Sequence record: MK327941.1
Length of the DNA: 64,000 nucleotides
Reading direction: 5' to 3' (one strand)
Source: Escherichia phage vB_EcoM_G37-3
Shown: positions 1 to 20,141 of the stretch, piece by piece
Layout of the letters: each line of letters opens with the position of its first letter
Position numbering within the stretch: position 1 is the first letter of the stretch
Program-made: the position numbers and the translations under genes
Notes under the pieces: generated by a model
Databases searched by the model: none
What the model saw: the letters and a program-made list of their open reading frames with translations, nothing else
Told to the model about the DNA's origin: nothing

Positions 1-2109
1 TTAAAATTTAACATTCTTAACCAGTTTCATAAAGTCTTGTGCGCGTTTGTCATTATGCAGAATACGATACCAGTTATCGACAATATCATACAGTAACGGG
101 CTATTCTCTTTAAACTTCGCACAAACTGCTTTAATTCGTTCGTTTGCTACCGTGAATTTTTCATCACAAATCTTTTTAGTTTCTTCGTCCATAATACAAC
201 GAGTACGAAGGAGTAACTTGGAAACCTCTTTATTATAATGACGACCGTACAGTCTGTCAATAAATTCTGGAACACAGCGTTCTAGTTCATCGTCATGAAA
301 CAACATAGTGATCACACCCAGATATTCGCCATACCCCAGATGATTGGTCTTAACCTTCTTAGCCAGACCAGCCAGCTTACCGCGAACAAATTCTAGCGCA
401 CATTCCAATTGTTCGTCAACGAGATATTTTTGTGTCTCGTTACGGGTAATAATATACTTTGTTACCCCGAAGTAGTCAAGCGCCGTGTGTAATGTATTTT
501 CATTATAGATCGATTGACGGCTACGGCTTTCGAATGCATCACCCACGCGGAACATGTGCAAGCCTGATAACTCGCGAATCTCTGCCGCTTTCATGTGATG
601 GCTGGTTTTATGCCAACTGTCACCAATCTTTTCCATAATATACACGTTAGGCAGCTTAGGAGTAGCTTCACGTTGTGTACGCTCGGTCTTCTCCGGTTTA
701 ACTGCTTTAGCACGCAGATCATCGGCCTCAGACACTTTAATCACGGTCATTTCAGAATCATCATAATACTGTTTGATGTACTCGAAAGTCTCCATATGTT
801 TTTCGTTGCGCTGACGGAACACCAGTACCTTTTTATTGATTCCGTATTCCTGGACCATGCCGTTAAGAGTCAGTGCACGCAGTTTCGGTTTATCGGTATC
901 ATCAATAAGACACGTAATATCTTCTTTATGCATCCATACAAAATGCGTAATGTTGTATTGACTGCTAACGAAAGCAGGGCGCAATTTACTGATTGTGTGA
1001 CGAGTACGATACAGAGTATACACCTGACCTTCTACGTCATTAGGCGAATCTTTACCCGCATTCACAAACTTATTATAGATTGCTACCGGATCGTCCCATT
1101 GTCCGATCTTACCCATCTTGCTAATAATATTGCGTTGCGTCGATGAATACCCGCTCATAAATTGAGCAAGTTTACGCTCTGTTTTAATGTTGGCGATCTT
1201 TTCTTTAACCTTTTCCAACATCATTTCATTGATTTCTGCAATGCGTTTTTCGATGTTCGCTTTAGTCTCAATTGACAAGTGAACTTCTTCACGCGATGGC
1301 ATAAGGTCCAGATCACCCAACTCAAAATTAATGTAAATGGTCTGGTGCTGGCGGTTTACAGCTTCTAACCATGTTCCGCGAACATATTCATACGGGATCG
1401 GATACTGGATCTTACCCATGATTGCATATACTACATAGGAATCGTTATCACGCCCATTACAAACATAATAATTATCAAAGCTAGGGAAATAATTAATTTC
1501 GATTGCATTGATATTAGGTTTGTGTTCCCCAAAATGACGCAGTACAAATTGCGCTTCTCGATGCCATGTCTGAATATCTTTTTCTTTCACCGGAATAGTG
1601 ATTTTCAGACCATTGTCTTCATAGGTCGGTTCGTCGAAAATCTGCACCATTTTCGGCATAGAGTTTTGCACAAATGCCGTAAAGCCATAAGCGCGACCAT
1701 TGTAATAGTTTACGATTGTAAAGGTGTCAGTGTAGCTATAAGCAGATTTCGCACCTAAACCAAAAGATCCGATATAATCATTAGTCTGGTCTTTTGTTGA
1801 TTCAAAGTAAACCGTAAACAGTTGTTCTAATTCTTTCTTAGACGGAATACCAGTACCATAATCGCGCACAGAAAAATACGGTTCGATTGCAGTCGGTAAA
1901 TGAATGTCAAACGGACGATCTAAGGTTCCGGCTTCTTTGTGAGTGTCGGTAGCATTGCACGAATACTCACGGACGCAAGCACGCTCACAATATTGATAAG
2001 TGTTCTTAGAAAGCACCATAAAAGCCTTGCTACTTGCTTTCAGTGAAAAATCAACCGCACCGCTCAAGTCACTGCCAAATACTTCTTCATTATCAATATG
2101 CATTTTCAT
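1..2109 (-). CDS. rIIA: rIIA protein (ATPase-like N-terminal region)
   Basis: 702-aa ORF with DYGTGIP and GSFGLGAKSAYSY motifs; ATG at 2109 behind GTGAGGA RBS; sits next to gp39 as in T4. Confidence 0.85.
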   Translation of the reverse strand: MKMHIDNEEVFGSDLSGAVDFSLKASSKAFMVLSKNTYQYCERACVREYSCNATDTHKEAGTLDRPFDIHLPTAIEPYFSVRDYGTGIPSKKELEQLFTVYFESTKDQTNDYIGSFGLGAKSAYSYTDTFTIVNYYNGRAYGFTAFVQNSMPKMVQIFDEPTYEDNGLKITIPVKEKDIQTWHREAQFVLRHFGEHKPNINAIEINYFPSFDNYYVCNGRDNDSYVVYAIMGKIQYPIPYEYVRGTWLEAVNRQHQTIYINFELGDLDLMPSREEVHLSIETKANIEKRIAEINEMMLEKVKEKIANIKTERKLAQFMSGYSSTQRNIISKMGKIGQWDDPVAIYNKFVNAGKDSPNDVEGQVYTLYRTRHTISKLRPAFVSSQYNITHFVWMHKEDITCLIDDTDKPKLRALTLNGMVQEYGINKKVLVFRQRNEKHMETFEYIKQYYDDSEMTVIKVSEADDLRAKAVKPEKTERTQREATPKLPNVYIMEKIGDSWHKTSHHMKAAEIRELSGLHMFRVGDAFESRSRQSIYNENTLHTALDYFGVTKYIITRNETQKYLVDEQLECALEFVRGKLAGLAKKVKTNHLGYGEYLGVITMLFHDDELERCVPEFIDRLYGRHYNKEVSKLLLRTRCIMDEETKKICDEKFTVANERIKAVCAKFKENSPLLYDIVDNWYRILHNDKRAQDFMKLVKNVKF

Positions 2110-2123
2110 AATATAATCCTCAC

Positions 2124-2381
2124 TTAATTAAAATCTTCTTTGTCCATCTCTGCGTAGATTACATCCCACGCCCATAAATCAATAAACGCATTATATGTCA
2201 CGGTGCAATCGTTATCAATCACTTCTTTCGCATATTTCTTGATGTTTTCGTAGGAAACTTGCGGATTAATTTTGTGTTTACGAAGATGCGCATATTCATA
2301 CCTCAAACACTCCATAAACAGGTCCATCGATTTCTTTTCTCGATGACACTTGGCGATCATAAAATCAAAACTTCGACTCAT
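2124..2381 (-). CDS. hypothetical protein (85 aa)
   Basis: ORF with AGGAG RBS 6 nt upstream of ATG at 2381. Confidence 0.5.
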   Translation of the reverse strand: MSRSFDFMIAKCHREKKSMDLFMECLRYEYAHLRKHKINPQVSYENIKKYAKEVIDNDCTVTYNAFIDLWAWDVIYAEMDKEDFN

Positions 2382-2391
2382 TTTCTACTCC

Positions 2392-2586
2392 TTATACATT
2401 TTCAATCACCCATTGCAGATGGGCTTCTGCGTCAACCAGTTCAGCGCGGCTTTTCTCTAAGCACTTGCTGTATTCTTTACGTTCCCAATCAGCTATTTCG
2501 TTTTTCAAGACTTCTTCATAGTAAGCAATTACGCCTTTCAGATCGGAAACTTTACGGCTTGCCAGTTCGATGTAATGGTTACGCAT
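2392..2586 (-). CDS. hypothetical protein (64 aa)
   Basis: ORF tightly packed between neighbours on the same strand. Confidence 0.4.
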   Translation of the reverse strand: MRNHYIELASRKVSDLKGVIAYYEEVLKNEIADWERKEYSKCLEKSRAELVDAEAHLQWVIENV

Positions 2587-2782
2587 TTTGATTCTCCTTT
2601 GTTACTAGATAACGAATTTGGTCTTGCATTGCGATCAGTTCCCAGCGTGCTACTTTCATCATGGAAACCGACTCTTTGAACATAATATTAGCTTTTTCCT
2701 TATTCCCTGTCAAGTAGATTTCTGCAATTTTTTCACAAAATTTTTGAGTTTCTTCATTCTTAAACGGTTTCATATAAGTCAA
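2579..2782 (-). CDS. hypothetical protein (67 aa)
   Basis: ATG at 2782 behind AAAGGTTGA RBS and its own early promoter. Confidence 0.5.
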   Translation of the reverse strand: MTYMKPFKNEETQKFCEKIAEIYLTGNKEKANIMFKESVSMMKVARWELIAMQDQIRYLVTKENQNA

Positions 2783-2802
2783 CCTTTTGTTTTCGATGGG
2801 GA

Positions 2803-2832
2803 CATTATGATATATCCCCGATCCAGTGTCAA
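2803..2832 (-). promoter_or_regulatory. sigma70-like early promoter (PeSL-type), TTGACA-N17-CATAAT
   Basis: -35 TTGACA and -10 CATAAT on minus strand; -10 flanked by inverted repeat GGGGA/TCCCC; coordinates approximate. Confidence 0.55.
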
Positions 2833-2839
2833 CAGATTT

Positions 2840-3139
2840 TTAATCTTTTTTCAATGCATCCATTACTCGCTCTGCGATCAGTTCTCGTAAGCACTGATAA
2901 CCATGATATTTGATGGCAATGTCACGCAGATCATTAACCAGTTCCCGTACTTCATGGTCTTTCAGATCGTCTCTGTATTTCGATTTAACCGTGTCTTTAG
3001 GTGGATTGTGGATAACCTGAAAACCTTGTTCTGCAATCAATGCGGCTTCGCGCTGGCGTTCATGCTGTACTGTATTTTTGATCAGGTCTGCTTCCATGAA
3101 CTTTGCCATACTCATCATCATGTTATTCTTTTTGCTCAT
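2840..3139 (-). CDS. hypothetical protein (99 aa)
   Basis: Internal ATG at 3139 behind GAGGA RBS; track start lacks an RBS. Confidence 0.5.
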   Translation of the reverse strand: MSKKNNMMMSMAKFMEADLIKNTVQHERQREAALIAEQGFQVIHNPPKDTVKSKYRDDLKDHEVRELVNDLRDIAIKYHGYQCLRELIAERVMDALKKD

Positions 3140-3173
3140 CGTTAAATCCTCATAAAAGAAAAGGGAGACTCCC

Positions 3174-3201
3174 ATTATAGAGAATCTCCCTTGTATGTCA
3201 A
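3174..3201 (-). promoter_or_regulatory. sigma70-like early promoter (PeSL-type), TTGACA-N16-TATAAT
   Basis: -35/-10 on minus strand with GGGAGA/TCTCCC inverted repeat around -10; approximate. Confidence 0.55.
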
Positions 3202-3761
3202 CTAAAATTTAAAGATGCAAACTCCCCGTGATGAATTTTTGCATATTCATCATATGCTCTAGCGGCTTCCTCCTGAGTAGCAAACGATCCTATGTATTTT
3301 CTGTATCCGTTTATCCTTATTTGTGCTTGCCACGGTCTTTTGCTAGATCCTTTGCGATGAGTAACACCATTATATATGCTCGTGCACCCGTCCATTTTCT
3401 TTTTATTGTACATGTTTTGTTGTTGTGTTGCCTCCCGTAAATTTGGTGGATTGTTGTTTTCTGGATTCCCGTCTATGTGGTCTATTACCTTAACCTGTGT
3501 TCCATATTCAAGAAACCAGACAATTCTATGTACAAGATATGTAGATGTTCTCTTTTTAACCTTATTGTAAACATCTATTGCCAAATGACCGTAATTTAAC
3601 TTTTTTGTTTTTACTTTATCACCGACTTGGTAGAAATATCCCTCTGGTAGACCATTAAAAGACGGACTATTTGTTTTGTGATATAGAACACCTTCCGTGT
3701 GTTCAAATCTGCGTTTTAATTCCTCTTGAATTTCAGTATTCCAAAATTTCGCACTTTTCAT
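3198..3761 (-). CDS. HNH homing endonuclease with C-terminal AP2 DNA-binding domain
   Basis: HNH motif HIDGNPENNNPPNL; AP2-like YNGVTHRKGSSKRPWQAQIRINGYRKYIGSFATQEEAARAYDEYA; directly downstream of gp39. Confidence 0.8.
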   Translation of the reverse strand: MKSAKFWNTEIQEELKRRFEHTEGVLYHKTNSPSFNGLPEGYFYQVGDKVKTKKLNYGHLAIDVYNKVKKRTSTYLVHRIVWFLEYGTQVKVIDHIDGNPENNNPPNLREATQQQNMYNKKKMDGCTSIYNGVTHRKGSSKRPWQAQIRINGYRKYIGSFATQEEAARAYDEYAKIHHGEFASLNFS

Positions 3762-3762
3762 A

Positions 3763-5586
3763 TTATGACGCCATCCATGCCTTCCTCATGTCTGAATCTT
3801 CGCTATAGAGCAAATCGAATAGCTCTTTATAGTTTTCCGGTAACGTGATGATCTCCATGACAGGATCGTTGATCACGCGATGATAATCTGATTCTGTGAG
3901 CGATGCTAAACCTTTGATATATCGAATGTTGTAACCTTTGATATTATCTCGGTCGTTCTCGAAATCTTCTAGGTCATAATACCATCGAACATCATCACCT
4001 TTCTTTGGTTCCGCAATGATAATAGGTGTTTTGATAAACCGGATTCGTCCATCTTCGAACAATTCAGGCCAACGTGCAAAGAAAGAGATCAGACTAGGTT
4101 TAATAGACCCGATCCCGTCAGTATCAGCGTCGGTCATAATCGCAATATTTTTGTATTGCATAACTTCCAATGCATCAACACCAAATTGCAAGCCAGTGAT
4201 CGCCATGATGTTAAAAATTTCGGCGTTCTTAACGATCTTTGCCTCCGGTTGTTCCCACGTTGTAAGAGTTTTGCCTCGCAACGGGAAACCTCCATGTAAA
4301 TCTTGATCACGTACAGAGATCAGATAGTTGATCGCGGAATCACCTTCCGTCAAAAACAGGGTAGTTTCTGCGTCAGTTCCAATAAGGTTAGCTTTAACGT
4401 GTTTTGCCACCTTAGCCCGTTTCGCTGCCTTTGCTGCCTTAGTCGCTGCCGCTTTATCTGCTGCCTCTTTGCGTGCCAGGACTACAGCAATAATAGGCAT
4501 GATAATGTTTTCTTTCTTAGCAATGACTTTAGCCAGCTTTTTAAAATCAAGATCAATATGACGCTTGATATCACCAGTCGGGTTAGTCAAGCGTTCTTTT
4601 GTCTGTGAATCAAAACGAAGGTTAGGCAATTCACGAACAATAAGAATACAGGTCAATCCAGACTTAACCGCAGCTTTAGTAACATCAACCTTATATTCTT
4701 TCTTGATTCGTTTTACAATCTCTTCACAAAGATCATCTGTCACATAATCAACGTGTGTTCCCCCGTTTTTGGTAAACAGACCGTTAGCAAAGGATACTGA
4801 TTTAAAACCTTCTCCCTCGACCGCAGGAACTAGGGCAAGTGAAAAGTTTTTATCTTCAATGACAAACGGATCATCATTGTATAGTTTAGCATAATCCTTG
4901 AACTTGCTGGTTATCTTTTTGCCATTAAACTTAAACGTGATCTTAGGAAAGATTACACTCAATGAATACATTCGATCGCAAATCACATCTGAAATTTCTT
5001 GTGACATGATCATACCTTCAAAATGATCGAAATCGGGGCAGAACGTAACCTTAGTTCCTTTCAGTTTTGACGGCTTAGATGACCAGCTAATATTTTCTGC
5101 ACCATTGGTACATTGAACGGTCAGTTCATTCTCTCCGTCACACGTCACACCAGTAAACCAGGACGAGAAAAATGATGTGAGCGCGCTTCCGATCCCATTC
5201 ATACCCATAGTAACACGATTTGTATCATCAAAGTTAGACCCTGCTTTAGCTCGTGTCCATGCAGCAACTGGTTGTGGAATCTGTTTCCCTTCTGGCGTCG
5301 TAACAATATGTTGCGGAATACCGCGACCATTATCTGTTACTGACACAATGTTATCTTTTATATCCACACTAATAACATTAGCGTACTCAAAATTCGTGCG
5401 GATCGCCTCGTCTACAGAGTTGTCGATAATTTCATCAATAATTTTAACTAGACCAGGAACATATGACACTTTGGTCCATTTTCCAAATAGGAAACGATTA
5501 TGTGATTCATAAGTCGTTGACCCGATGTACATTGAAGGTCTCTTAAGACAGTGAGCGCGATCATCTAACAGTAAAAATTCACTCAT
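3763..5586 (-). CDS. 39: DNA topoisomerase II large subunit gp39, unsplit (covers T4 gp39 plus gp60)
   Basis: 607-aa ORF; GHKL ATPase motifs IIDNSVDE, DNGRGIP, GGTHVDY, TOPRIM-like LFLTEGDSA; T4 has this split into genes 39 and 60. Confidence 0.9.
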   Translation of the reverse strand: MSEFLLLDDRAHCLKRPSMYIGSTTYESHNRFLFGKWTKVSYVPGLVKIIDEIIDNSVDEAIRTNFEYANVISVDIKDNIVSVTDNGRGIPQHIVTTPEGKQIPQPVAAWTRAKAGSNFDDTNRVTMGMNGIGSALTSFFSSWFTGVTCDGENELTVQCTNGAENISWSSKPSKLKGTKVTFCPDFDHFEGMIMSQEISDVICDRMYSLSVIFPKITFKFNGKKITSKFKDYAKLYNDDPFVIEDKNFSLALVPAVEGEGFKSVSFANGLFTKNGGTHVDYVTDDLCEEIVKRIKKEYKVDVTKAAVKSGLTCILIVRELPNLRFDSQTKERLTNPTGDIKRHIDLDFKKLAKVIAKKENIIMPIIAVVLARKEAADKAAATKAAKAAKRAKVAKHVKANLIGTDAETTLFLTEGDSAINYLISVRDQDLHGGFPLRGKTLTTWEQPEAKIVKNAEIFNIMAITGLQFGVDALEVMQYKNIAIMTDADTDGIGSIKPSLISFFARWPELFEDGRIRFIKTPIIIAEPKKGDDVRWYYDLEDFENDRDNIKGYNIRYIKGLASLTESDYHRVINDPVMEIITLPENYKELFDLLYSEDSDMRKAWMAS

Positions 5587-5685
5587 TATTAAACCTCTTC
5601 ATAACATAACCATAACTTACTGCAACCGCCACAAAGACGGCTGCAACAATCATATTAAAAATTGAGTGATTGTCAAGTATATGAC

Positions 5686-5859
5686 TCATGACACGCGCAC
5701 ATTTTTATCATAGTACCCGCCATTAATCCCGCGCGGGGCAGTTAATCCCTGTTTGCATTCTTTACCACATTCAGGGCATTCTGCCTTTTCACGTTCGGAA
5801 ATTTTGCGGATTTTCTGAAATTGACCGTGTTCTTCACAAGAATAATCATATAATGGCAT
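5686..5859 (-). CDS. FmdB-family zinc-ribbon protein (57 aa)
   Basis: MPLYDYSCEEHGQF...CPECG pattern; ATG at 5859 behind AAAGGGGA RBS, just after dexA stop. Confidence 0.5.
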   Translation of the reverse strand: MPLYDYSCEEHGQFQKIRKISEREKAECPECGKECKQGLTAPRGINGGYYDKNVRVS

Positions 5860-5860
5860 A

Positions 5861-6529
5861 TTATCCCCTTTGTTTCTTAACTGAATTTGGATCTGGATTT
5901 TCTGGCAAGTCTTCCAGACCCATAGCATAACGTTGTGCATAGATTAGCATAAGAATATCGCGAGCGCAATCATGAATTGCATCATGTGCGATAAAACCAT
6001 CTAGCGTACCCATTGGTAACGGACACTCACACATCCCGCGATGCATCAATGTACGCTCAATGGCGGTGCGAACATCTCGGATATTCCAGAATCGCACAGG
6101 TTCAAGGCTGAACGTCTCTCGTGTATTGTGTGCACGGCGGATCATATCAACTAGTAACGGAATATCAAACGCATTACCGCGTGACCACAATACGGATTTA
6201 ACCGGATCTACTCCTACGGCTTCACAGAATGCGTTAAAACGCGCTAAACCTTCTTTAGTTGATACTTCCGTACCATTTGTGATTAATTGCTTTCTCATGC
6301 CTTCTGAGGCGGTATTCTTCCACCATTCAACCACACCATGATCAAACACCCTTACACCTTTCTGAGAAGGAATATCAAATTTTACCAGAAAGGAATTGTC
6401 AACCAGTTCTTTAAATGTAGGTGGATTGTGCGGATCTTCTTTAAATCCGATTGCCGCCATATTGATAACCGCCCCATCAGGCGGATAACCTAAACTTTCA
6501 AAGTCAATCATTAAATCCACTGGAAGCAT
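5861..6529 (-). CDS. dexA: exonuclease A DexA (DEDD 3'-5' exonuclease)
   Basis: N-terminus MLPVDLMIDFESLGY matches T4 DexA; ATG at 6529 behind GGAGGA RBS; the first 24 codons of the track ORF are rejected as extension. Confidence 0.85.
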   Translation of the reverse strand: MLPVDLMIDFESLGYPPDGAVINMAAIGFKEDPHNPPTFKELVDNSFLVKFDIPSQKGVRVFDHGVVEWWKNTASEGMRKQLITNGTEVSTKEGLARFNAFCEAVGVDPVKSVLWSRGNAFDIPLLVDMIRRAHNTRETFSLEPVRFWNIRDVRTAIERTLMHRGMCECPLPMGTLDGFIAHDAIHDCARDILMLIYAQRYAMGLEDLPENPDPNSVKKQRG

Positions 6530-6530
6530 T

Positions 6531-6773
6531 TTAAATATCCTCCGCGATATGCCGGAACAACTCCAGATCGTTTTTATCCAGAATGAAACCGCTACAATCA
6601 ATAATCCCGTTACCGTAATTATCGGTTAACAGTCGTTCCGTTGCCATGTATGCGCGTACTTTGTTGTTAAAATTCATTACATGTTGTGCATAGTCACAAT
6701 GAATCTTTTGACGGTTCCACGCGACAATTGATTGTAGATGTATTACATTAGCCACATTATTAATAACAACCAT
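6531..6773 (-). CDS. hypothetical protein (80 aa)
   Basis: ATG at 6773 behind GAGGG RBS; track start is GTG without RBS. Confidence 0.45.
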   Translation of the reverse strand: MVVINNVANVIHLQSIVAWNRQKIHCDYAQHVMNFNNKVRAYMATERLLTDNYGNGIIDCSGFILDKNDLELFRHIAEDI

Positions 6774-8522: not shown

Positions 8523-8836
8523 TATCCTAAAATCCTCACCTTGCGAACACAGATAGTATTGAGTTCTCGCCGTACCCGTTCTTTTTCATATTCAGGAATT
8601 TTATATTCGATACCATCCCGAACAATTTCAGAAGACCGGATTATGCCAAATTTTCGTTTAGGTACAACCTTGTATTTCGGTTCACCCGCCAATAGACTCT
8701 CACAATAATCTATCTGATCACACATTGACGCTAACGCAGCATCATGTGTTTCGCAAGTTAGGACGCGACCCTTCGCGTCCACTGAGTATTGAAAGAATCC
8801 GTCTTTATCACGATAACATACAGCAAATACATGCAT
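8522..8836 (-). CDS. hypothetical protein (104 aa)
   Basis: ORF whose stop overlaps dda start. Confidence 0.5.
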   Translation of the reverse strand: MHVFAVCYRDKDGFFQYSVDAKGRVLTCETHDAALASMCDQIDYCESLLAGEPKYKVVPKRKFGIIRSSEIVRDGIEYKIPEYEKERVRRELNTICVRKVRILG

Positions 8837-9591
8837 TATAAACCTACCTTCGCTTTCATCAATTCAATCCACGACGCATCAATCGGAAGCCCGTATTTCA
8901 CGCGTTCTTTTTGTGCTGGCGTTAAGTTCTCATACTTAGAAAGAGATTCAATCAAAACGCTGGTATATTTTAGCACGATTTCGGTATTGTTTGCAATAGC
9001 CTTAAGTTTTTCTTCTTTCTTGTTGATTTCGCTAAGGGCTTGCTTGAGATCTGCAATTTTCTGATAACGTTCTTCCATACGGAAGAGAGTATTTTTAATC
9101 GCTCGCTCGGCTGCCTCTGCTTTCTCCGGTTCGTTGTGCTTTTTATGGCGCTCGATTGCTAATTTCTTTTCTTCGATTGCCATTTCCTGATTTTTGATGC
9201 GATTCTCGTTAAGTTCGATCCACTCGATGTACTTCGCACGTAGGGCAATTTCATCATCAGAAAGTTTACCGTTAGTTCCTAGTTCCTGGATCTCTTTAAG
9301 AGATTCGATAGTGTGATTGCCACGGAAAGAATTATATTTCAGTTTAACCGGAATTACATTGCCATCAACATATCCCAGATTGCAATCAATGCGCTCTAAG
9401 GAGAGTCCGTCATCACCTTCACCGAAAGCCTCACCGGAATAGACGCAATGAGTCTGTCGGTAAATGTTACGCACAGTGACTAAGCTCATAGAGAAGTCTT
9501 TGTTGCGACGTGAAGCACCAGCCATGATAGAGTTCAGACGGAAAACAACCAGAGCCAATTCTTCGTTAGATTTAAAAGCAAACAGTTTCAT
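8836..9591 (-). CDS. hypothetical coiled-coil protein (251 aa); at the T4 srd position
   Basis: ATG at 9591 behind AAGGAGAATCAATT leader; Srd assignment is positional only. Confidence 0.45.
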   Translation of the reverse strand: MKLFAFKSNEELALVVFRLNSIMAGASRRNKDFSMSLVTVRNIYRQTHCVYSGEAFGEGDDGLSLERIDCNLGYVDGNVIPVKLKYNSFRGNHTIESLKEIQELGTNGKLSDDEIALRAKYIEWIELNENRIKNQEMAIEEKKLAIERHKKHNEPEKAEAAERAIKNTLFRMEERYQKIADLKQALSEINKKEEKLKAIANNTEIVLKYTSVLIESLSKYENLTPAQKERVKYGLPIDASWIELMKAKVGL

Positions 9592-10237: not shown

Positions 10238-10245
10238 TATAAATA
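10238..10245 (+). promoter_or_regulatory. T4-type late promoter TATAAATA
   Basis: Exact TATAAATA about 30 nt upstream of plus-strand HNH ATG at 10275. Confidence 0.6.
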
Positions 10246-10274: not shown

Positions 10275-11204
10275 ATGAACTATAAACGTATTTATGATAA
10301 CCTGATTGAACGTGCTAAGACTCGAACTATCGACGGATATACAGAAAAGCATCACATCATACCACGTTGTATGAATGGAAGCGATGATGATAGCAATCTA
10401 GTTAGACTCACCCCAGAGGAACATTACATTGCTCACCTTCTGTTAGTTAAGATTTATCCAGATAACAGTAAATTGGTTTATGCTGCAAATATGATGTGCG
10501 TTTCTTCTGATTCACATAATGGAGAAAGACAGTCAAATAAACGTCATGGTTGGTTGCGTAGAAAAATGGCAGAGGCACATAGTAAAAGAATCCGCGATAG
10601 AATGGAGAACGATCCTGAATATAGAGCTAAGGTTTCGGAATGGGCTAGAAAAATGGGTAAAGCTATGAAAGGAGTTAAACGAGGACCGGAATTTAGCAGA
10701 AAGTTGGCAGAAAGAAACAGAAATACCGTGATGAAAGAAGAAACTAAACGTAAAATCGGGGAAGCCAACAAAGGAAGGAAACGTACAGAAGAATATAAAA
10801 GAAAACATAGTGAGCGGTATAAGGGTGAAGGTAATCCGATGTATGGTAAACGAGGAAAGGACCATCCGGCATATGGTACTAAACCGTGGAACAACCAAAC
10901 ATCATTTGTTGAGCAGAAAGCATGGTGGCGTTTCGCTGGCATGTTCTATGACTGGTATCAGAGAGATATTGACCGTGGAACACATAAACGCCACGGCCAT
11001 AAGAGAATGTTAGACGAGTTAGGTTTTGTTGGTTGGCGAGAAAAAGAGCCAGCCGCAGCAAGACGGTCAATTGAGATGTTCGCTAAAGGCTGGAATCCTT
11101 ATGAAGACCAAGAATGGTTAGATTATGTTAATACCCGCTTTCCAAACGACGATAGTTTTCCGCGTTCTTCAACATATACAAGACAAACAGATCTTTCGCA
11201 GTAA
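10275..11204 (+). CDS. HNH homing endonuclease with NUMOD3-like repeats
   Basis: HNH motif EKHHIIPRCMNGSDDDSNLVRLTPEEHYIAH; repeats GNPMYGKRGKDHPAYG; GGAG RBS; only sizeable plus-strand gene in the region. Confidence 0.85.
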   Translation: MNYKRIYDNLIERAKTRTIDGYTEKHHIIPRCMNGSDDDSNLVRLTPEEHYIAHLLLVKIYPDNSKLVYAANMMCVSSDSHNGERQSNKRHGWLRRKMAEAHSKRIRDRMENDPEYRAKVSEWARKMGKAMKGVKRGPEFSRKLAERNRNTVMKEETKRKIGEANKGRKRTEEYKRKHSERYKGEGNPMYGKRGKDHPAYGTKPWNNQTSFVEQKAWWRFAGMFYDWYQRDIDRGTHKRHGHKRMLDELGFVGWREKEPAAARRSIEMFAKGWNPYEDQEWLDYVNTRFPNDDSFPRSSTYTRQTDLSQ

Positions 11205-17413: not shown

Positions 17414-17441
17414 ATTATACACACTTTATCTTAAATGTCAA
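17414..17441 (-). promoter_or_regulatory. sigma70-like early promoter TTGACA-N16-TATAAT
   Basis: Near-consensus -35 and -10 on minus strand in the gp43 to uvsX intergenic region; approximate. Confidence 0.6.
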
Positions 17442-20109
17442 ACAGGTCAGTAAGCGATGCAACTTTTTCGTATTGCAGCTTTGCAGCCGTGGTAATGTTC
17501 TCCAGCGGTTTGACGAAAGTCTTATTAAACAACAAAGGCCAGTCTAACCACTTCAACACTTCTGATTCAATTTCTGGCGGAATACGAGTACCAGACAACC
17601 AACCAAAACAGATTTCTCCAAACGGATTTCGATCTTTAAGCGGTACAATCATAACCTTCTCGCCTTCACGAATCGGATCTAGTCCGAATTTTCTGGCATT
17701 ACGATTATAACACAATACACTCTTAACCGCATACGGACAACCCTTAATCGGATACCCGTTTGAATCGCTGTATTTCTGTAGGTTGTTTGCCGATGATACC
17801 GCAGCAACCTCAAGATAGTCAAGTTTTCGAAACTCTTGCTCAAAAATACCGTAGTATTCCTGCAATGACTCTTCCCCTTCCTGCAACATACGGCGAATAC
17901 ATTCTTTCAGTGATTTCTGACATGCTTTAGGGGTGGAGCTACGTTGCGTTTCCAAGCCCATGATTTTTAGCTTAGGTTCAGCAAAGCGCGTTCCTTCCAT
18001 ATCCCAAACATTAAGAGCATAACGCTTTTTGCCAGTCCAGAATCCACCGATACCCGCAGATTTCAACGGAGGACCAGCAATTGCCTCGCGGTCCATAAAC
18101 ATCAAGTGCTCGTAGTTGTTCATGTACTCGCATAACTCGCGATATCCCTTGTCGATAATAGGTTCCATTCGATGTTTACCGAAATTATCAAGGAAGTCAA
18201 CAAGTTTTTCGGTATCGTCGAAACGGTCTTCCCCGCCAACCTTATCAATAACATTGTTAACCAGCACATAAACGGAGTCAGTATCACAATAACGAACATA
18301 TGCAAAATCGGTTGTTCCGCAAAGATCGTTTAAGTATTCGTTAATCTTACGCTCAATCCACTGAATTGCAAGCTGACCGAACAGTGTGATCGCACTAGCG
18401 TTACGGAGATCATAAAAACGGAATTTAGGATTCCCCAACGCACCATAAAGGGAGTTGATCAAAACTTTTCGAGAAAGCTGGTTTGTATTGCACAAGATCG
18501 ACTCGTCTTTACATTCTTCCAGCAATTTCTCTAAGGCATCTTTACTTAATTCAGAAAGCATCGATTTAAACGCTTCATCAAAGTCGTGACGCACTTCAAC
18601 GCTATAGCTAATGGTTCCCCCATAAACATGATTTTCATCGTGTAGAATCGCTTTACAGAGTTCAGCATTGCGATCACATGCCAACATCATGTTTTTGTAC
18701 TGCTTACGCTGATCGAATACCTTTTTAATCTCAATCGGTACGATACCGTGAATATCTTTTCTATACATCCATCCGTTAGGCGAGCAAGAATACTCATCAC
18801 TCGGACGTGGTGCAGTTTTATTGATATACTCGTGCATCGGTGCAGCATCAAAAGATCCAGCGATTGTTTCAGGCGAAATATTAACCTGTCGAATAATAGA
18901 TGGGTACAGACTTGTTAAGTCAAAGCTCATCATCCAACGGTAAGCATTCGGCACAGGTTCTTTTACGAATGCGCCTGGATACGTCTGCTTAGGCTGTATC
19001 TTATTTTCCGGTACTACTTTACCCTCAGCTTTCAGAGATCCGAAGATAATAGCATCCCATACTTTCATTGGGTTATAAACATGGTTAAATTTAATCTTTG
19101 CATAGAAACATAGGCTATACACCAGATCAATAAAACCACGCTTTTTATCAATCGCCAGCACACGGTCAACGTCGCCGATGTTATAATCTATGTAAAGTTG
19201 ATGGTTGTCATCACGCAATTTCTTTAACGGACCATCATAATCAACCTTACCGATTCCGGTCTCATATTCAGCAACATAATCTAACGCATATGTTGGTTGA
19301 GTCGTAAAGCTAAATTTCTTGTACAGGTCAATATAATCAAGGCTTTCGATCCCCATGATCGTAAATGCTTCACGCTCGTTGCCAAAATCATCCTGTGAGA
19401 TTCGGGATTTAATCTTACCGCACGGGCTTAGACGGTTAGCGGTTCTACTTCCGAACTTATTACTGATACGTTTAATGATATACGGTATATCGAATGTTTC
19501 TGTGTTCCAGCCAGTGAAACCAACGGGTCGGTTTTCCTCAAAGAATCGGATGTATTCTAACAGCAATTCATCTTCTGTGTCGTAGACGTTATAAACAACG
19601 CGCTCTACAATATCAGGTCGAAGAATAGACTTGCTAGATTCCCAGATTTCACCGTTTTTTCCTTTCAAATCAAATACAAAGAAACGATCATGTACGGAAT
19701 CATAATGCGTAATTGCATCGATAGGATATTTCGCTTCTTCTGGTTTAGGAAATTCTGGGGCAGTGACCTCGATATCAACCCATGCTACACGGATTTTATT
19801 TCGGTCATATCGAATCTCGCCTTTATACGTATCAGACAGATAGGAGATGATAAAATCATCCATCCCTAGCGCCTCTTGCCCCATTTCTCCCATCTTTTTA
19901 CGCCATTTGTTGGCCTCGTTCATAGATGGGAATTTTTTAGCAATGCAAGGCTTGCCATAGATATCTTTATAATTCGTAACCATACCAGGCGCGGCATGAT
20001 GAAATAATGTTGGCGTATATTCAACGTAACGCTCTTGTTCTTGTCCAGCATCATCAATATAACGCTCGTAGATCTTATCACCTACTCGCTCACATGACAG
20101 AAAATACAT
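17431..20109 (-). CDS. 43: DNA polymerase gp43 (family B)
   Basis: About 892 aa from ATG at 20109 behind GAAGGAG RBS (track start is GTG); exonuclease and polymerase motifs match T4 gp43 along the whole length. Confidence 0.95.
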   Translation of the reverse strand: MYFLSCERVGDKIYERYIDDAGQEQERYVEYTPTLFHHAAPGMVTNYKDIYGKPCIAKKFPSMNEANKWRKKMGEMGQEALGMDDFIISYLSDTYKGEIRYDRNKIRVAWVDIEVTAPEFPKPEEAKYPIDAITHYDSVHDRFFVFDLKGKNGEIWESSKSILRPDIVERVVYNVYDTEDELLLEYIRFFEENRPVGFTGWNTETFDIPYIIKRISNKFGSRTANRLSPCGKIKSRISQDDFGNEREAFTIMGIESLDYIDLYKKFSFTTQPTYALDYVAEYETGIGKVDYDGPLKKLRDDNHQLYIDYNIGDVDRVLAIDKKRGFIDLVYSLCFYAKIKFNHVYNPMKVWDAIIFGSLKAEGKVVPENKIQPKQTYPGAFVKEPVPNAYRWMMSFDLTSLYPSIIRQVNISPETIAGSFDAAPMHEYINKTAPRPSDEYSCSPNGWMYRKDIHGIVPIEIKKVFDQRKQYKNMMLACDRNAELCKAILHDENHVYGGTISYSVEVRHDFDEAFKSMLSELSKDALEKLLEECKDESILCNTNQLSRKVLINSLYGALGNPKFRFYDLRNASAITLFGQLAIQWIERKINEYLNDLCGTTDFAYVRYCDTDSVYVLVNNVIDKVGGEDRFDDTEKLVDFLDNFGKHRMEPIIDKGYRELCEYMNNYEHLMFMDREAIAGPPLKSAGIGGFWTGKKRYALNVWDMEGTRFAEPKLKIMGLETQRSSTPKACQKSLKECIRRMLQEGEESLQEYYGIFEQEFRKLDYLEVAAVSSANNLQKYSDSNGYPIKGCPYAVKSVLCYNRNARKFGLDPIREGEKVMIVPLKDRNPFGEICFGWLSGTRIPPEIESEVLKWLDWPLLFNKTFVKPLENITTAAKLQYEKVASLTDLFDI

Positions 20110-20141
20110 AATATAAACTCCTTCATTTACGAAAGACACTC

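Follow-up and report, generated by a model that had tools for sequence, protein, structure and literature searches.

Endonuclease genes of the HNH-AP2 class, which was defined by Magnani et al. in 2004 (as cited in PMC1524935 and PMC2993671), occur in T4-related phages as free-standing genes with a sporadic distribution. Examples are RB49ORF040c and several genes in RB16/RB43 and JSE, two having been counted in JSE (PMC2993671, Table 5), and in the literature that we searched there was no biochemically characterised HNH-AP2 protein from a T4-like phage. The gene considered here, which we call HEG-A, lies beside the topoisomerase gene 39 in the window, that is, in the 64-kb stretch of DNA that was analysed and that forms the left end of a Krischvirus (RB49-like) genome. 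HEG-A shares with the genes just mentioned an HNH_3 domain followed by a C-terminal AP2 domain, and it is free-standing in the same sense: it has an ORF to itself, not embedded in an intron or intein, it occupies a fixed site, and it is present in some relatives and absent from others. The class, the unsplit form of gene 39 and the HEG-A gene itself are already annotated or catalogued.

Like HEG-A, MobA of T4 is a free-standing HNH-type endonuclease that is tied to gene 39 and has no promoter of its own, and its "homR", a diverged homologous sequence that takes the place of a short part of the host gene (bioRxiv 10.1101/2022.08.31.505936), resembles the recoded gene 39 tail found next to HEG-A. 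However, MobA interrupts the Toprim domain (codons 466-473) and adds C- and N-terminal extensions together with a bypass, whereas HEG-A follows the stop codon of a gene 39 that remains whole, at a site without such additions. The proteins also differ in size, with 269-279 aa for MobA and 187 aa, AP2 domain included, for HEG-A. A tblastn comparison of HEG-A with positions 2400-3800 of T4 (the 60.1-mobA region) gave no match at E<=10, and homology to MobA was rejected.

Other described systems resemble parts of the locus. I-HmuI (1U3E) of Bacillus phage SPO1, a nicking HNH endonuclease encoded in an intron, shares with HEG-A the N-terminal sheet and the HNH core, with its catalytic D-H pair and Asn. 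Its C-terminal part is a helical and helix-turn-helix DNA-binding region, for which HEG-A has an AP2 domain instead, and it resides in a group I intron, whereas HEG-A is free-standing, has no Rfam intron and is only a putative nickase. T4 MobE and other promoter-less mob and seg cassettes lie between conserved genes on the message of the gene upstream, as HEG-A appears to do, and the endonuclease ORF borders on or contains the promoter of the gene downstream, a feature that HEG-A shares (PMC2790892, PMC2988022). "Intronless homing" with co-conversion of the flanks is thought to act in the spread of these cassettes (PMC2790892, PMC2988022). MobE differs in that it carries another DNA-binding domain and cuts far from its own insertion site. 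Finally, F-CphI and related endonucleases with the Endo VII motif (DHHRN; PMC6083498) resemble HEG-B, an Endonuclease_7-motif gene that occurs sporadically, again at a fixed site, in relatives of the window.

Gene 39 in one piece

The large subunit of the topoisomerase is encoded by a single ORF of 607 codons (positions 3763..5586, minus strand), as the earlier note had claimed, and T4 gp39 and gp60 align with it collinearly. By BLASTP, residues 2-474 correspond to gp39 4-475 (56% identity) and residues 476-607 to gp60 31-160 (53% identity), so that the two alignments abut at residues 474/476. The product has a GHKL ATPase, a GyrB transducer and a Toprim domain. Pfam recognises HATPase_c (4.3e-8, 34 bits against a cut-off of 26.4) and DNA_gyraseB (5.2e-17), with Toprim and TOPRIM_C at 22.2 and 27.9 bits, both slightly below their cut-offs; through the gp60 alignment, the Toprim domain with its DxD metal site can be followed without a break across the T4 split point. 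Judged by these matches, the product is predicted to be a T4-type topoisomerase II large subunit (gp39 plus gp60; GyrB-like).

An untranslated insert inside this ORF had been named as the observation that would speak against the claim, and none was found. The equivalent of the T4 39/60 split point and hop site (4111..4164, minus strand) is continuous coding sequence. The split point corresponds to codon 475 (nt 4162-4164) and the hop site of gene 60 falls between codons G491 and I492 (nt 4114/4113), where MTDADTDG|IGSI aligns with T4 MTDADHDG|LGSI free of gaps, including at the place of the 50-nt hop. Searches for Rfam introns, structured RNAs and tRNAs found none in the 64-kb window.

In the T4 record, mobA is located between genes 60 and 39, in the neighbourhood for which the earlier note had named a mobile endonuclease gene, and the 50-nt bypass lies within gene 60. 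The T4 split has been described as derived and as a product of the MobA element (bioRxiv 10.1101/2022.08.31.505936). Unsplit gene 39 is annotated in RB49 and Phi1 and was also seen in VR7, and the annotated Krischvirus genes are 95-99% identical to that of the window. The one-piece gene is the ordinary state and T4 the exception; confirming that the unsplit gene is the norm and the T4 39/60 arrangement an oddity matters little beyond bookkeeping.

An HNH-AP2 gene between gene 39 and an early promoter

HEG-A (3198..3761, minus strand) encodes 187 aa. It matches phrog_99, "HNH endonuclease", at 3.5e-49, and the annotations of G5211, W115 and FL15 list it as an HNH or homing endonuclease. Its catalytic core, HNH_3 (aa 75-118; 3408..3539, minus strand; Pfam 6.3e-14), contains D94-H95, N103, N107 and N116, with N119 one residue past the core. 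When aligned to I-HmuI, D94-H95 and N116 pair with D74-H75 and N96 of that enzyme, and in the family alignment D94, H95, N103, N107, R109 and N119 are invariant.

The C-terminal AP2 domain (aa 127-186; 3204..3383, minus strand) scores 1.5e-5 and 25.7 bits with the single sequence, under the Pfam cut-off of 33.3. The same region has sequence matches in the PDB to WRI1, ERF096 and AtERF1, and a family profile built from 19 homologues reaches 2.5e-23 against the AP2 factor WRI1 and 9.4e-17 against the HNH homing endonuclease I-HmuI. The AlphaFold model of the protein (pLDDT 92.8) forms in this region a three-stranded sheet (133-135, 144-150, 153-160) and one helix (163-181). Foldseek superposes the model on the AP2 domain of AtERF1 (1GCC) with 1.6 A over 61 columns and a target TM-score of 0.78, and on I-HmuI (1U3E) with an rmsd of 3.5 A over 103 columns; 7ET5 is also among its matches. 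Pfam, the family profile and the model agree with the earlier note, which had described the gene directly downstream of gene 39 as an HNH nuclease that ends in an AP2 domain, and by its domain architecture HEG-A is an I-HmuI-like HNH nuclease fused to AP2.

Homologues of HEG-A are found in 1192 phage records, and the paralogues nearest to it, at 46-49% identity, lie at other loci. Examples are a place beside the gene 46/47 homologues of Klebsiella phages and one at about 10 kb in G2494, and tblastn detected no paralogue within the 64-kb window. The G+C content of HEG-A (0.33-0.37) is lower than that of gene 39 (0.40-0.47), which argues for a foreign origin.

The edges of the insert are sharp: it begins after TCAGAC in the tail of gene 39 and ends at the promoter sequence TTGACA. 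Between the stop codon of gene 39 and the start codon of HEG-A there is a single base (TAA-T-ATG). What looks like the left end of the cassette is a recoded block of about 21 nt in the final codons of gene 39 (3769..3790, minus strand), which was recognised by its mismatches to the RB49 and ECD7 alleles and is present only in genomes that carry HEG-A. The RB49 allele differs at 14 positions between 3769 and 3802 and the ECD7 allele at 12 within 3769-3789, synonymous changes in codons for conserved D, R and K residues among them, and the adjoining 327 nt are 99.1-99.4% identical in the four carriers G5211, JSE, pEJ01 and LF73P4. In HEG-A carriers, as in the SSG23/Makalu type, the last 28 nt or so of gene 39 have diverged too far to be aligned with megablast, and identity over the adjoining 327 nt is 96.3-99.4%.

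At the right boundary, the TGA stop codon of HEG-A sits within the -35 box of an early sigma-70-type promoter (TTGACA-16-TATAAT, 12/12 matches to the consensus; 3174..3201, minus strand) that belongs to the homologue of RB49ORF005c. From TTGACA onward, the sequence is identical in genomes with and without HEG-A. This promoter is overlapped by a terminator-like hairpin with a T-run (3161..3192, minus strand), in which a stem of 13 pairs is followed by TTCTTTTATG. A terminator is annotated at this site in G5211, GEC-3S and Makalu_002, and the hairpin would be a candidate end for the transcript of gene 39 and HEG-A. The likely start of that transcript, as far as promoter motifs can tell, is a site upstream of gene 39 (5649..5676, minus strand) that reads TTGACA-16-TATGAT and matches the consensus at 11 of 12 positions.

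HEG-A has no promoter of its own. Between the 5649..5676 site and HEG-A there is no consensus-grade sigma-70 promoter, the best candidate matching 9/12, and the late promoter motif TATAAATA is absent from the gene 39/HEG-A locus; in the whole window it occurs three times, at 10238, 48502 and 59273. We therefore rejected a late or middle promoter belonging to HEG-A. Both promoter-less cassettes and HNH nickases are a documented pattern among the mob genes of T4 (PMC2988022). The Shine-Dalgarno context of HEG-A is weak (GGATGG, 9 nt upstream). An RNA hairpin masking the ribosome-binding site, as in T4 mobE and I-TevI, was considered and rejected, since the region 3735-3835 on the minus strand folds no better than shuffled sequence (z = 0.19).

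Distribution and proposed homing of HEG-A

Among 58 Krischvirus records, 8 carry HEG-A, always at the same site and with 99.3-100% identity (99.5% for the JSE copy), and in the other 50 the junction is uninterrupted. None of the eight copies has a frameshift or a premature stop codon, and all motif residues are intact. Nucleotide diversity is 0.0043 in HEG-A against 0.016-0.029 in its flanks, thus about 5 times lower, with 7 segregating sites in 564 nt compared with 26 in 564 and 34 in 421. For instance, the window and W115 differ at one position in HEG-A, whereas about 14 differences would be expected from the 88 found over 3482 positions of the backbone. Carriers are not grouped by their local backbone sequence: the nearest backbone to those of the window and LF73P4 is that of RB49, the nearest to that of kvi is MIZ6, and neither RB49 nor MIZ6 has HEG-A. 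The block common to all carriers is short (about 640 nt, 3158-3801), which suggests, from the alignments, that the target of the endonuclease is nearby. Low diversity relative to the flanks, combined with scattered carriers, fits a recent spread of HEG-A. Since T4-like phages recombine heavily, a recently acquired segment that was passed on by ordinary recombination could also show such a patchy distribution and low diversity.

We also considered a "hypervariable target site" at the gene 39 tail and discounted it. In seven HEG-A-free genomes, the final 42 nt of gene 39 have 18 variable positions, compared with 67/897 elsewhere, in a sample for which five loci had been picked for their low identity at this junction, and in a neighbouring stretch of 135 nt as many or more of the 58 records fall below 95% identity. 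What is left of the idea is the narrower finding, given above, on the last 28 nt or so.

We give a probability of about three in four to the interpretation that HEG-A is a promoter-less, free-standing HNH-AP2 homing endonuclease cassette inserted between the gene 39 stop codon and the next early promoter. The mobile unit would measure about 590 bp and comprise four parts: the 21-nt recoded block, which would replace the end of the gene 39 coding sequence, then the stop codon, a spacer of one base and the ORF of 564 nt. HEG-A would share the early transcript of gene 39, and its translation would probably occur at a low level by termination-reinitiation because of the TAA-T-ATG junction. During mixed infection, the AP2 domain and the I-HmuI-like N-terminal sheet would anchor the protein on the empty allele, within or close to the gene 39 end, and its HNH site would introduce a nick or a double-strand break. 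The lesion would be repaired from the carrier genome by T4-type recombination-dependent replication, which would copy in the HEG-A gene together with the recoded block. Once transferred, this block would protect carrier genomes from cutting, and it may also supply a weak ribosome-binding context. The cuts made by free-standing endonucleases of T4 often lie hundreds of bases away from the insertion site (PMC2988022), so the target of HEG-A need not be the recoded block itself.

It is improbable, in our estimation, that a gene of homing origin has been retained at this site because it now serves the phage. HEG-A might cut the genomes of co-infecting relatives, causing marker exclusion, or its AP2 domain might bind the adjacent early promoter, by analogy with the autorepression of I-TevI. 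The intact ORF, the conservation of catalytic and AP2 residues, the fact that four of the seven segregating sites are synonymous, and the overlap between the 3′ end of HEG-A and a perfect promoter are all in line with such a service, and dual roles have been documented for endonucleases in T4 (PMC2988022). Yet 50 of the 58 close relatives do without HEG-A while having the same promoter and neighbouring genes, and a benefit from exclusion would be compatible with homing and does not constitute a true alternative to it.

An even smaller chance is left for HEG-A being an inactive relic that has been scattered by homologous recombination and occasional deletion instead of homing. Such a relic could be expected to have weak translation signals and no promoter, as HEG-A does; pseudogenised or lost endonucleases are common, T4 mobA being one example (bioRxiv 10.1101/2022.08.31.505936), and the high recombination of T4-like phages agrees with local backbone distances that look mosaic. 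However, all eight copies have remained open and keep their motif residues, and the roughly fivefold deficit in diversity is what a recently spreading element would be expected to show. An ancestral HEG-A that was deleted in most lineages, which would make the RB49-type junction the derived one, is very unlikely: presence and absence alone do not give the direction of change and the 50 empty junctions resemble each other, but deletions in several species-level lineages (RB49, GEC-3S, ECD7) would each have had to restore the full gene 39 tail and stop exactly at the -35 box, G+C content and diversity are lower (the latter by far) than in the flanks, and other genera, such as that of VR7, have no gene at the site.

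The homing cassette that we favour would be one more well-delimited, promoter-less example in a T4-like phage. Its comparative value is modest and lies in the natural alleles with and without three endonuclease genes at two sites flanking one essential gene. As these phages infect laboratory E. coli, they would be convenient for studying homing, the length of co-conversion tracts and target immunity in the HNH-AP2 class.

A second site at the start of gene 39

At the start codon of gene 39, the window has an empty HEG-B site (5585..5600) of RB49-type sequence, as seen in an alignment of the window with RB49, MIZ6 and G5211; positions 5585, 5595 and 5597 agree with RB49 and not with MIZ6. Immediately inside the gene, the mismatch profile delimits a diverged 5′ tract (4906..5584, minus strand) of about 680 nt that differs by about 24% from the RB49/JSE allele, and its distal endpoint, 4906, is the same in the window, MIZ6 and G5211. 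The tract is found in 13 of the 58 Krischvirus records, all 13 of which also have the 739-bp HEG-B insert, whereas the window has the tract and no insert. Outside Krischvirus, the best identity to the tract among the matches listed is about 66%, and the lineage from which it came would thus not be in the phage collection.

It is possible, and we propose it tentatively as the less probable side of the question, that gene 39 is bracketed by two independent homing sites, each with a cassette that brings a replacement copy of the adjoining gene end. At the 3′ end, the recoded 21-nt tail would, by analogy with the homR/bypass segment of MobA, be a minimal immunity determinant. At the 5′ end, the window would represent a "post-loss" stage in which the co-converted tract, presumably resistant to cleavage, has been kept after the loss of the Endonuclease_7 gene with which it had arrived. 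If this were true, invasion, immunity and loss could all be seen within one genus at a single essential gene, and the several alternative gene 39 tails of endonuclease-free phages would be escape alleles.

The usefulness of the locus for following endonuclease traffic, which the earlier note had put forward, is borne out by at least three different endonuclease genes at the two sites flanking gene 39 in Krischvirus. No homology was found between HEG-A and the Endonuclease_7 gene. In G5211 and MIZ6, HEG-B is inserted at the gene 39 start and has the Endonuclease_7 motif (5.6e-16), and VR7 has a 40%-identical homologue of HEG-B at the same position.

The gene 39 locus and its unsplit topoisomerase

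Bases 2100-6700 of the window match 58 phage records at 90-99% identity, all of them Krischvirus (RB49-like T4-type coliphages), with vB_EcoM_G5211 the closest at 98.9%. The order of genes is rIIA, four small ORFs, an HNH ORF, gene 39, 39.2, dexA, two small ORFs and dda, as at the left end of RB49, JSE, W115 and G5211. On the minus strand, a 607-aa ORF (3763..5586) is followed by a 187-aa ORF (3198..3761), with a single base between the stop codon of gene 39 and the ATG of the downstream gene (TAA-T-ATG); ORF positions and Pfam domains agree with the coordinates and descriptions that the earlier note gave for both.

The 607-aa product contains HATPase_c, DNA_gyraseB, Toprim and TOPRIM_C domains (Pfam). 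For comparison, we used gp39 and gp60 as given in the T4 record, after excising the hop from gp60. Residues 2-474 align with T4 gp39 4-475 at 56% identity, and residues 476-607 with T4 gp60 31-160 at 53%, so that a single ORF is collinear with the two T4 proteins, as had been claimed. Nothing in the window protein corresponds to the C-terminal 41 residues of T4 gp39 or to the N-terminal 30 of gp60, segments that Manning and Atkins describe as extensions derived from the insert (bioRxiv 10.1101/2022.08.31.505936). In the T4 alignment, the 39/60 split corresponds to codon 475 (nt 4162-4164) and the 50-nt hop to the G491/I492 boundary (nt 4114/4113). Coding is continuous through both points (MTDADTDG-IGSI), and therefore gene 39 holds no untranslated insert, the one finding that the earlier note had named as telling against it. 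An unsplit gene is not unusual: in GenBank, the RB49 record equates gene 39 with T4 gp60 and gp39 and regards the T4 pair as insertion-disrupted, Phi1 annotates the gene as '60+39', and in VR7 (Tevenvirinae) it is likewise single.

The downstream HNH-AP2 gene

The product of the 187-aa ORF, here called HEG-A, had been described as an HNH nuclease with a C-terminal AP2 domain, and several lines of evidence bear this out. Pfam finds HNH_3 (6e-14) and AP2 (1.5e-5, under Pfam's cut-off). In a PDB sequence search, residues 46-122 match the HNH homing endonuclease I-HmuI (5e-5), and residues 127-186 match the plant AP2 domains of WRI1 (9e-6), ERF096 (3e-5) and AtERF1 (3e-4); with a profile of 19 homologues, these values become 2.5e-23 for WRI1 and 9.4e-17 for I-HmuI. 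D94-H95 and N116 align with D74-H75 and N96 of I-HmuI, and the family alignment shows no variation at D94, H95, N103, N107, R109 or N119. An AlphaFold model (pLDDT 92.8, pTM 0.82) finds its best PDB matches in AP2 domains, with 1GCC superposing at an rmsd of 1.6 A across 61 columns (41% identity), and in I-HmuI, across 103 columns. Taken together, the PDB matches, the profile and the model give an architecture of an I-HmuI-like N-terminal sheet and HNH core joined to an AP2 domain, which stands in place of the C-terminal DNA-binding region that I-HmuI has of its own.

The 564-nt gene is present in 8 of the 58 Krischvirus records (G5211, W115, pEJ01, FL15, kvi, LF73P4 and two records of JSE), in copies that are 99.3-100% identical and always lie between gene 39 and the RB49ORF005c homologue; the other 50 have this junction uninterrupted. 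Alignment of filled and empty states set the boundaries of the insert. On the right, the two agree from TTGACATACAAGGGAG on, and on the left, identity stops within the last codons of gene 39, which read GAC ATG AGG AAG GCA TGG ATG GCG TCA TAA in carriers and GAT CAG CGC AAA ATT TGG ATG CAA TCA TAA in RB49. This recoded tail differs from RB49 at 14 positions (3769 to 3802) and from the ECD7-type allele at 12 (within 3769-3789), and some of the changes, at codons for conserved D, R and K, are synonymous. Over the next 327 nt, G5211, JSE, pEJ01 and LF73P4 are 99.1-99.4% identical to RB49. The two boundaries thus delimit an inserted unit of ~590 bp that includes a replacement copy of the host-gene end, formally similar to the 'homR' segment of the MobA element (bioRxiv 10.1101/2022.08.31.505936).

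Among phages that lack HEG-A, gene 39 has at least four C-terminal versions (QRKIWMQS, RRKIWMQS, RRKAWMQS and RRKEWMCS). These alternative tails, comprising the last ~36 nt in a biased sample of SSG23, Makalu_002, JEP8, Whisky and ECD7, may record past invasions, may be escape alleles or may simply reflect weak constraint on the tail. We rejected hypervariability of the tail as a sign of target-site escape, as the loci behind it had been picked because identity at their junctions was low, and the adjacent 135 nt vary no less when all records are compared.

Several features are evidence of recent movement of HEG-A, as judged from sequence comparison. Among eight carriers (seven distinct database phages and the window), nucleotide diversity is 0.0043 in HEG-A versus 0.016-0.029 in the adjacent blocks, with 7 segregating sites in 564 nt versus 26 in 564 and 34 in 421; four of the seven are synonymous, and none falls at a motif residue. 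Over 3482 backbone positions, from which HEG-A, the gene 39 tail and the diverged 5' part of gene 39 were left out, the window and W115 differ at 88, which predicts ~14 differences in 564 nt, whereas HEG-A shows 1. Nor do carriers group by backbone, the window and LF73P4 being nearest RB49 and kvi nearest MIZ6; RB49 and MIZ6 both lack HEG-A. The gene is also lower in G+C than gene 39 (0.33-0.37 versus 0.40-0.47), and the block common to all carriers is only ~640 nt (3158-3801).

On the minus strand, consensus-grade promoter-like sites are confined to a position 5' of gene 39 (5676->5649, with 11/12 matches) and to the right boundary of the insert, at the 3' end of HEG-A. The TGA stop codon of HEG-A falls within the TTGACA there, the -35 box of a promoter with a full 12/12 match (TTGACA-16-TATAAT), and this promoter overlaps a terminator-like hairpin. 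The gene 39/HEG-A locus has no late promoter of the T4 type, and RNA folding around the HEG-A start codon is no better than for shuffled sequence. From the promoter pattern, HEG-A is a promoter-less cassette, which would be carried on the early transcript of gene 39, in a weak ribosome-binding context.

Architecture, intact active-site residues, exact boundaries, patchy distribution, low diversity and the lack of its own promoter are established here for HEG-A, and by analogy with phage HNH endonucleases and T4 recombination-dependent repair, a route of spread can be proposed. The protein would recognise the empty allele close to where gene 39 ends and nick or cut it (I-HmuI, MobA and MobE are nickases; PMC2988022), repair from a carrier genome would copy in HEG-A with the recoded tail, and this tail would shield carriers from cutting. 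HEG-A is not a MobA element: the two share no similarity, and MobA has a split host gene and bypass, whereas gene 39 is whole, without bypass, and HEG-A occupies a different position. According to PMC1524935 and PMC2993671, the HNH-AP2 class of phage endonucleases was described in 2004; such genes have been noted in RB49 and RB43 (PMC1524935), and JSE has two (PMC2993671, Table 5). Existing records already annotate HEG-A: it is a 'putative HNH endonuclease' in G5211, where the protein is identical, an 'HNH endonuclease' in W115 and a 'homing endonuclease' in FL15. The finding is thus real but ordinary, and what we add, namely where the insert ends on either side, the recoded gene 39 tail, the contrast in diversity and an orphan 5' tract of gene 39, is all of a known kind.

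The upstream site and the orphan 5' tract

In G5211 (L001 3994-4722), MIZ6 and eleven others, a 739-bp insert lies exactly between small ORF 006.1 and the start of gene 39. Its gene, HEG-B, encodes 242 aa with an Endonuclease_7 motif (5.6e-16), a motif used by the F-CphI homing endonuclease family (PMC6083498). VR7ORF006c of the Gaprivervirus VR7 (L016 4816-5511) is 40% identical and equivalent in position, and phiS (PP449093, L017 1315-1854) has a different HNH-AP2 gene at this site (179 aa; HNH_3 9e-13, AP2 1.5e-11), whose product is 47% identical to that of HEG-A over 96 residues. The window, in which this site falls at 5585-5600, has none of the three there.

From nt 4906 to its start codon (4906-5584, ~680 nt), gene 39 of the window differs by ~24% from the RB49/JSE allele; within the first 229 codons, 78 are changed synonymously and 42 non-synonymously. 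This stretch is 98.4-98.5% identical to the MIZ6/G5211 allele, with the same distal endpoint. All 13 database records with this 5' tract have the Endonuclease_7 gene, and all those without it lack the gene; none of the 58 records combines the tract with absence of the gene, as the window does. Because the tract starts at the insertion site and all phages share the same upstream DNA, the tract resembles the product of co-conversion from a diverged donor; no candidate donor appeared among the matches listed from the phage collection. Either the window lineage later lost the Endonuclease_7 gene, or the tract may be older than the gene; the junction, RB49-like through ATGAGT and MIZ6-like from GAA on, is compatible with either order of events.

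Records that carry the upstream endonuclease give gene 39 a start at M19, 18 codons too late (589 aa), for example at 2164-3933 in G5211 (L001) and 1607-3376 in MIZ6 (L003). This drops the conserved LLDDRAHCLKRPSMYIGS motif; the ATG of the full-length gene is there, along with a GGAG of its own, and the 589-aa version is therefore an annotation artefact. Overlapping the gene 39 start, 5579-5689 (-) encodes a hydrophobic 36-aa homologue of RB49p006.1 ending in ATGAGTGA, and within it lies the promoter-like site at 5649-5676 (-), the presumed driver of gene 39. Where the upstream endonuclease is present, this homologue has a rewritten C-terminus and a stop codon that overlaps the endonuclease's GTG start.

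Other possible mobile-element signatures in the window

A putative intron in gene 43 (DNA polymerase) has been reported for the close relative JSE (PMC2993671); in the window, gene 43 (17431-20139, -) appears as a single ORF of 902 aa, and an Rfam search of the whole stretch gave no group I intron. A 251-aa ORF at 8836-9591 (-) hits phrog_1400, the family of Srd anti-sigma factors, at 1e-72 and, more weakly, HNH-endonuclease phrogs (1e-11). The sole long plus-strand ORF amid the minus-strand early genes (10275-11204, 309 aa) matches the 'homing endonuclease' phrog_655 (1.4e-78), with a NUMOD3 motif and a weak HNH match, and a T4-type late promoter, TATAAATA, lies just 5' of it at 10238-10245 (+); this ORF probably represents a further mob-like, free-standing endonuclease gene.
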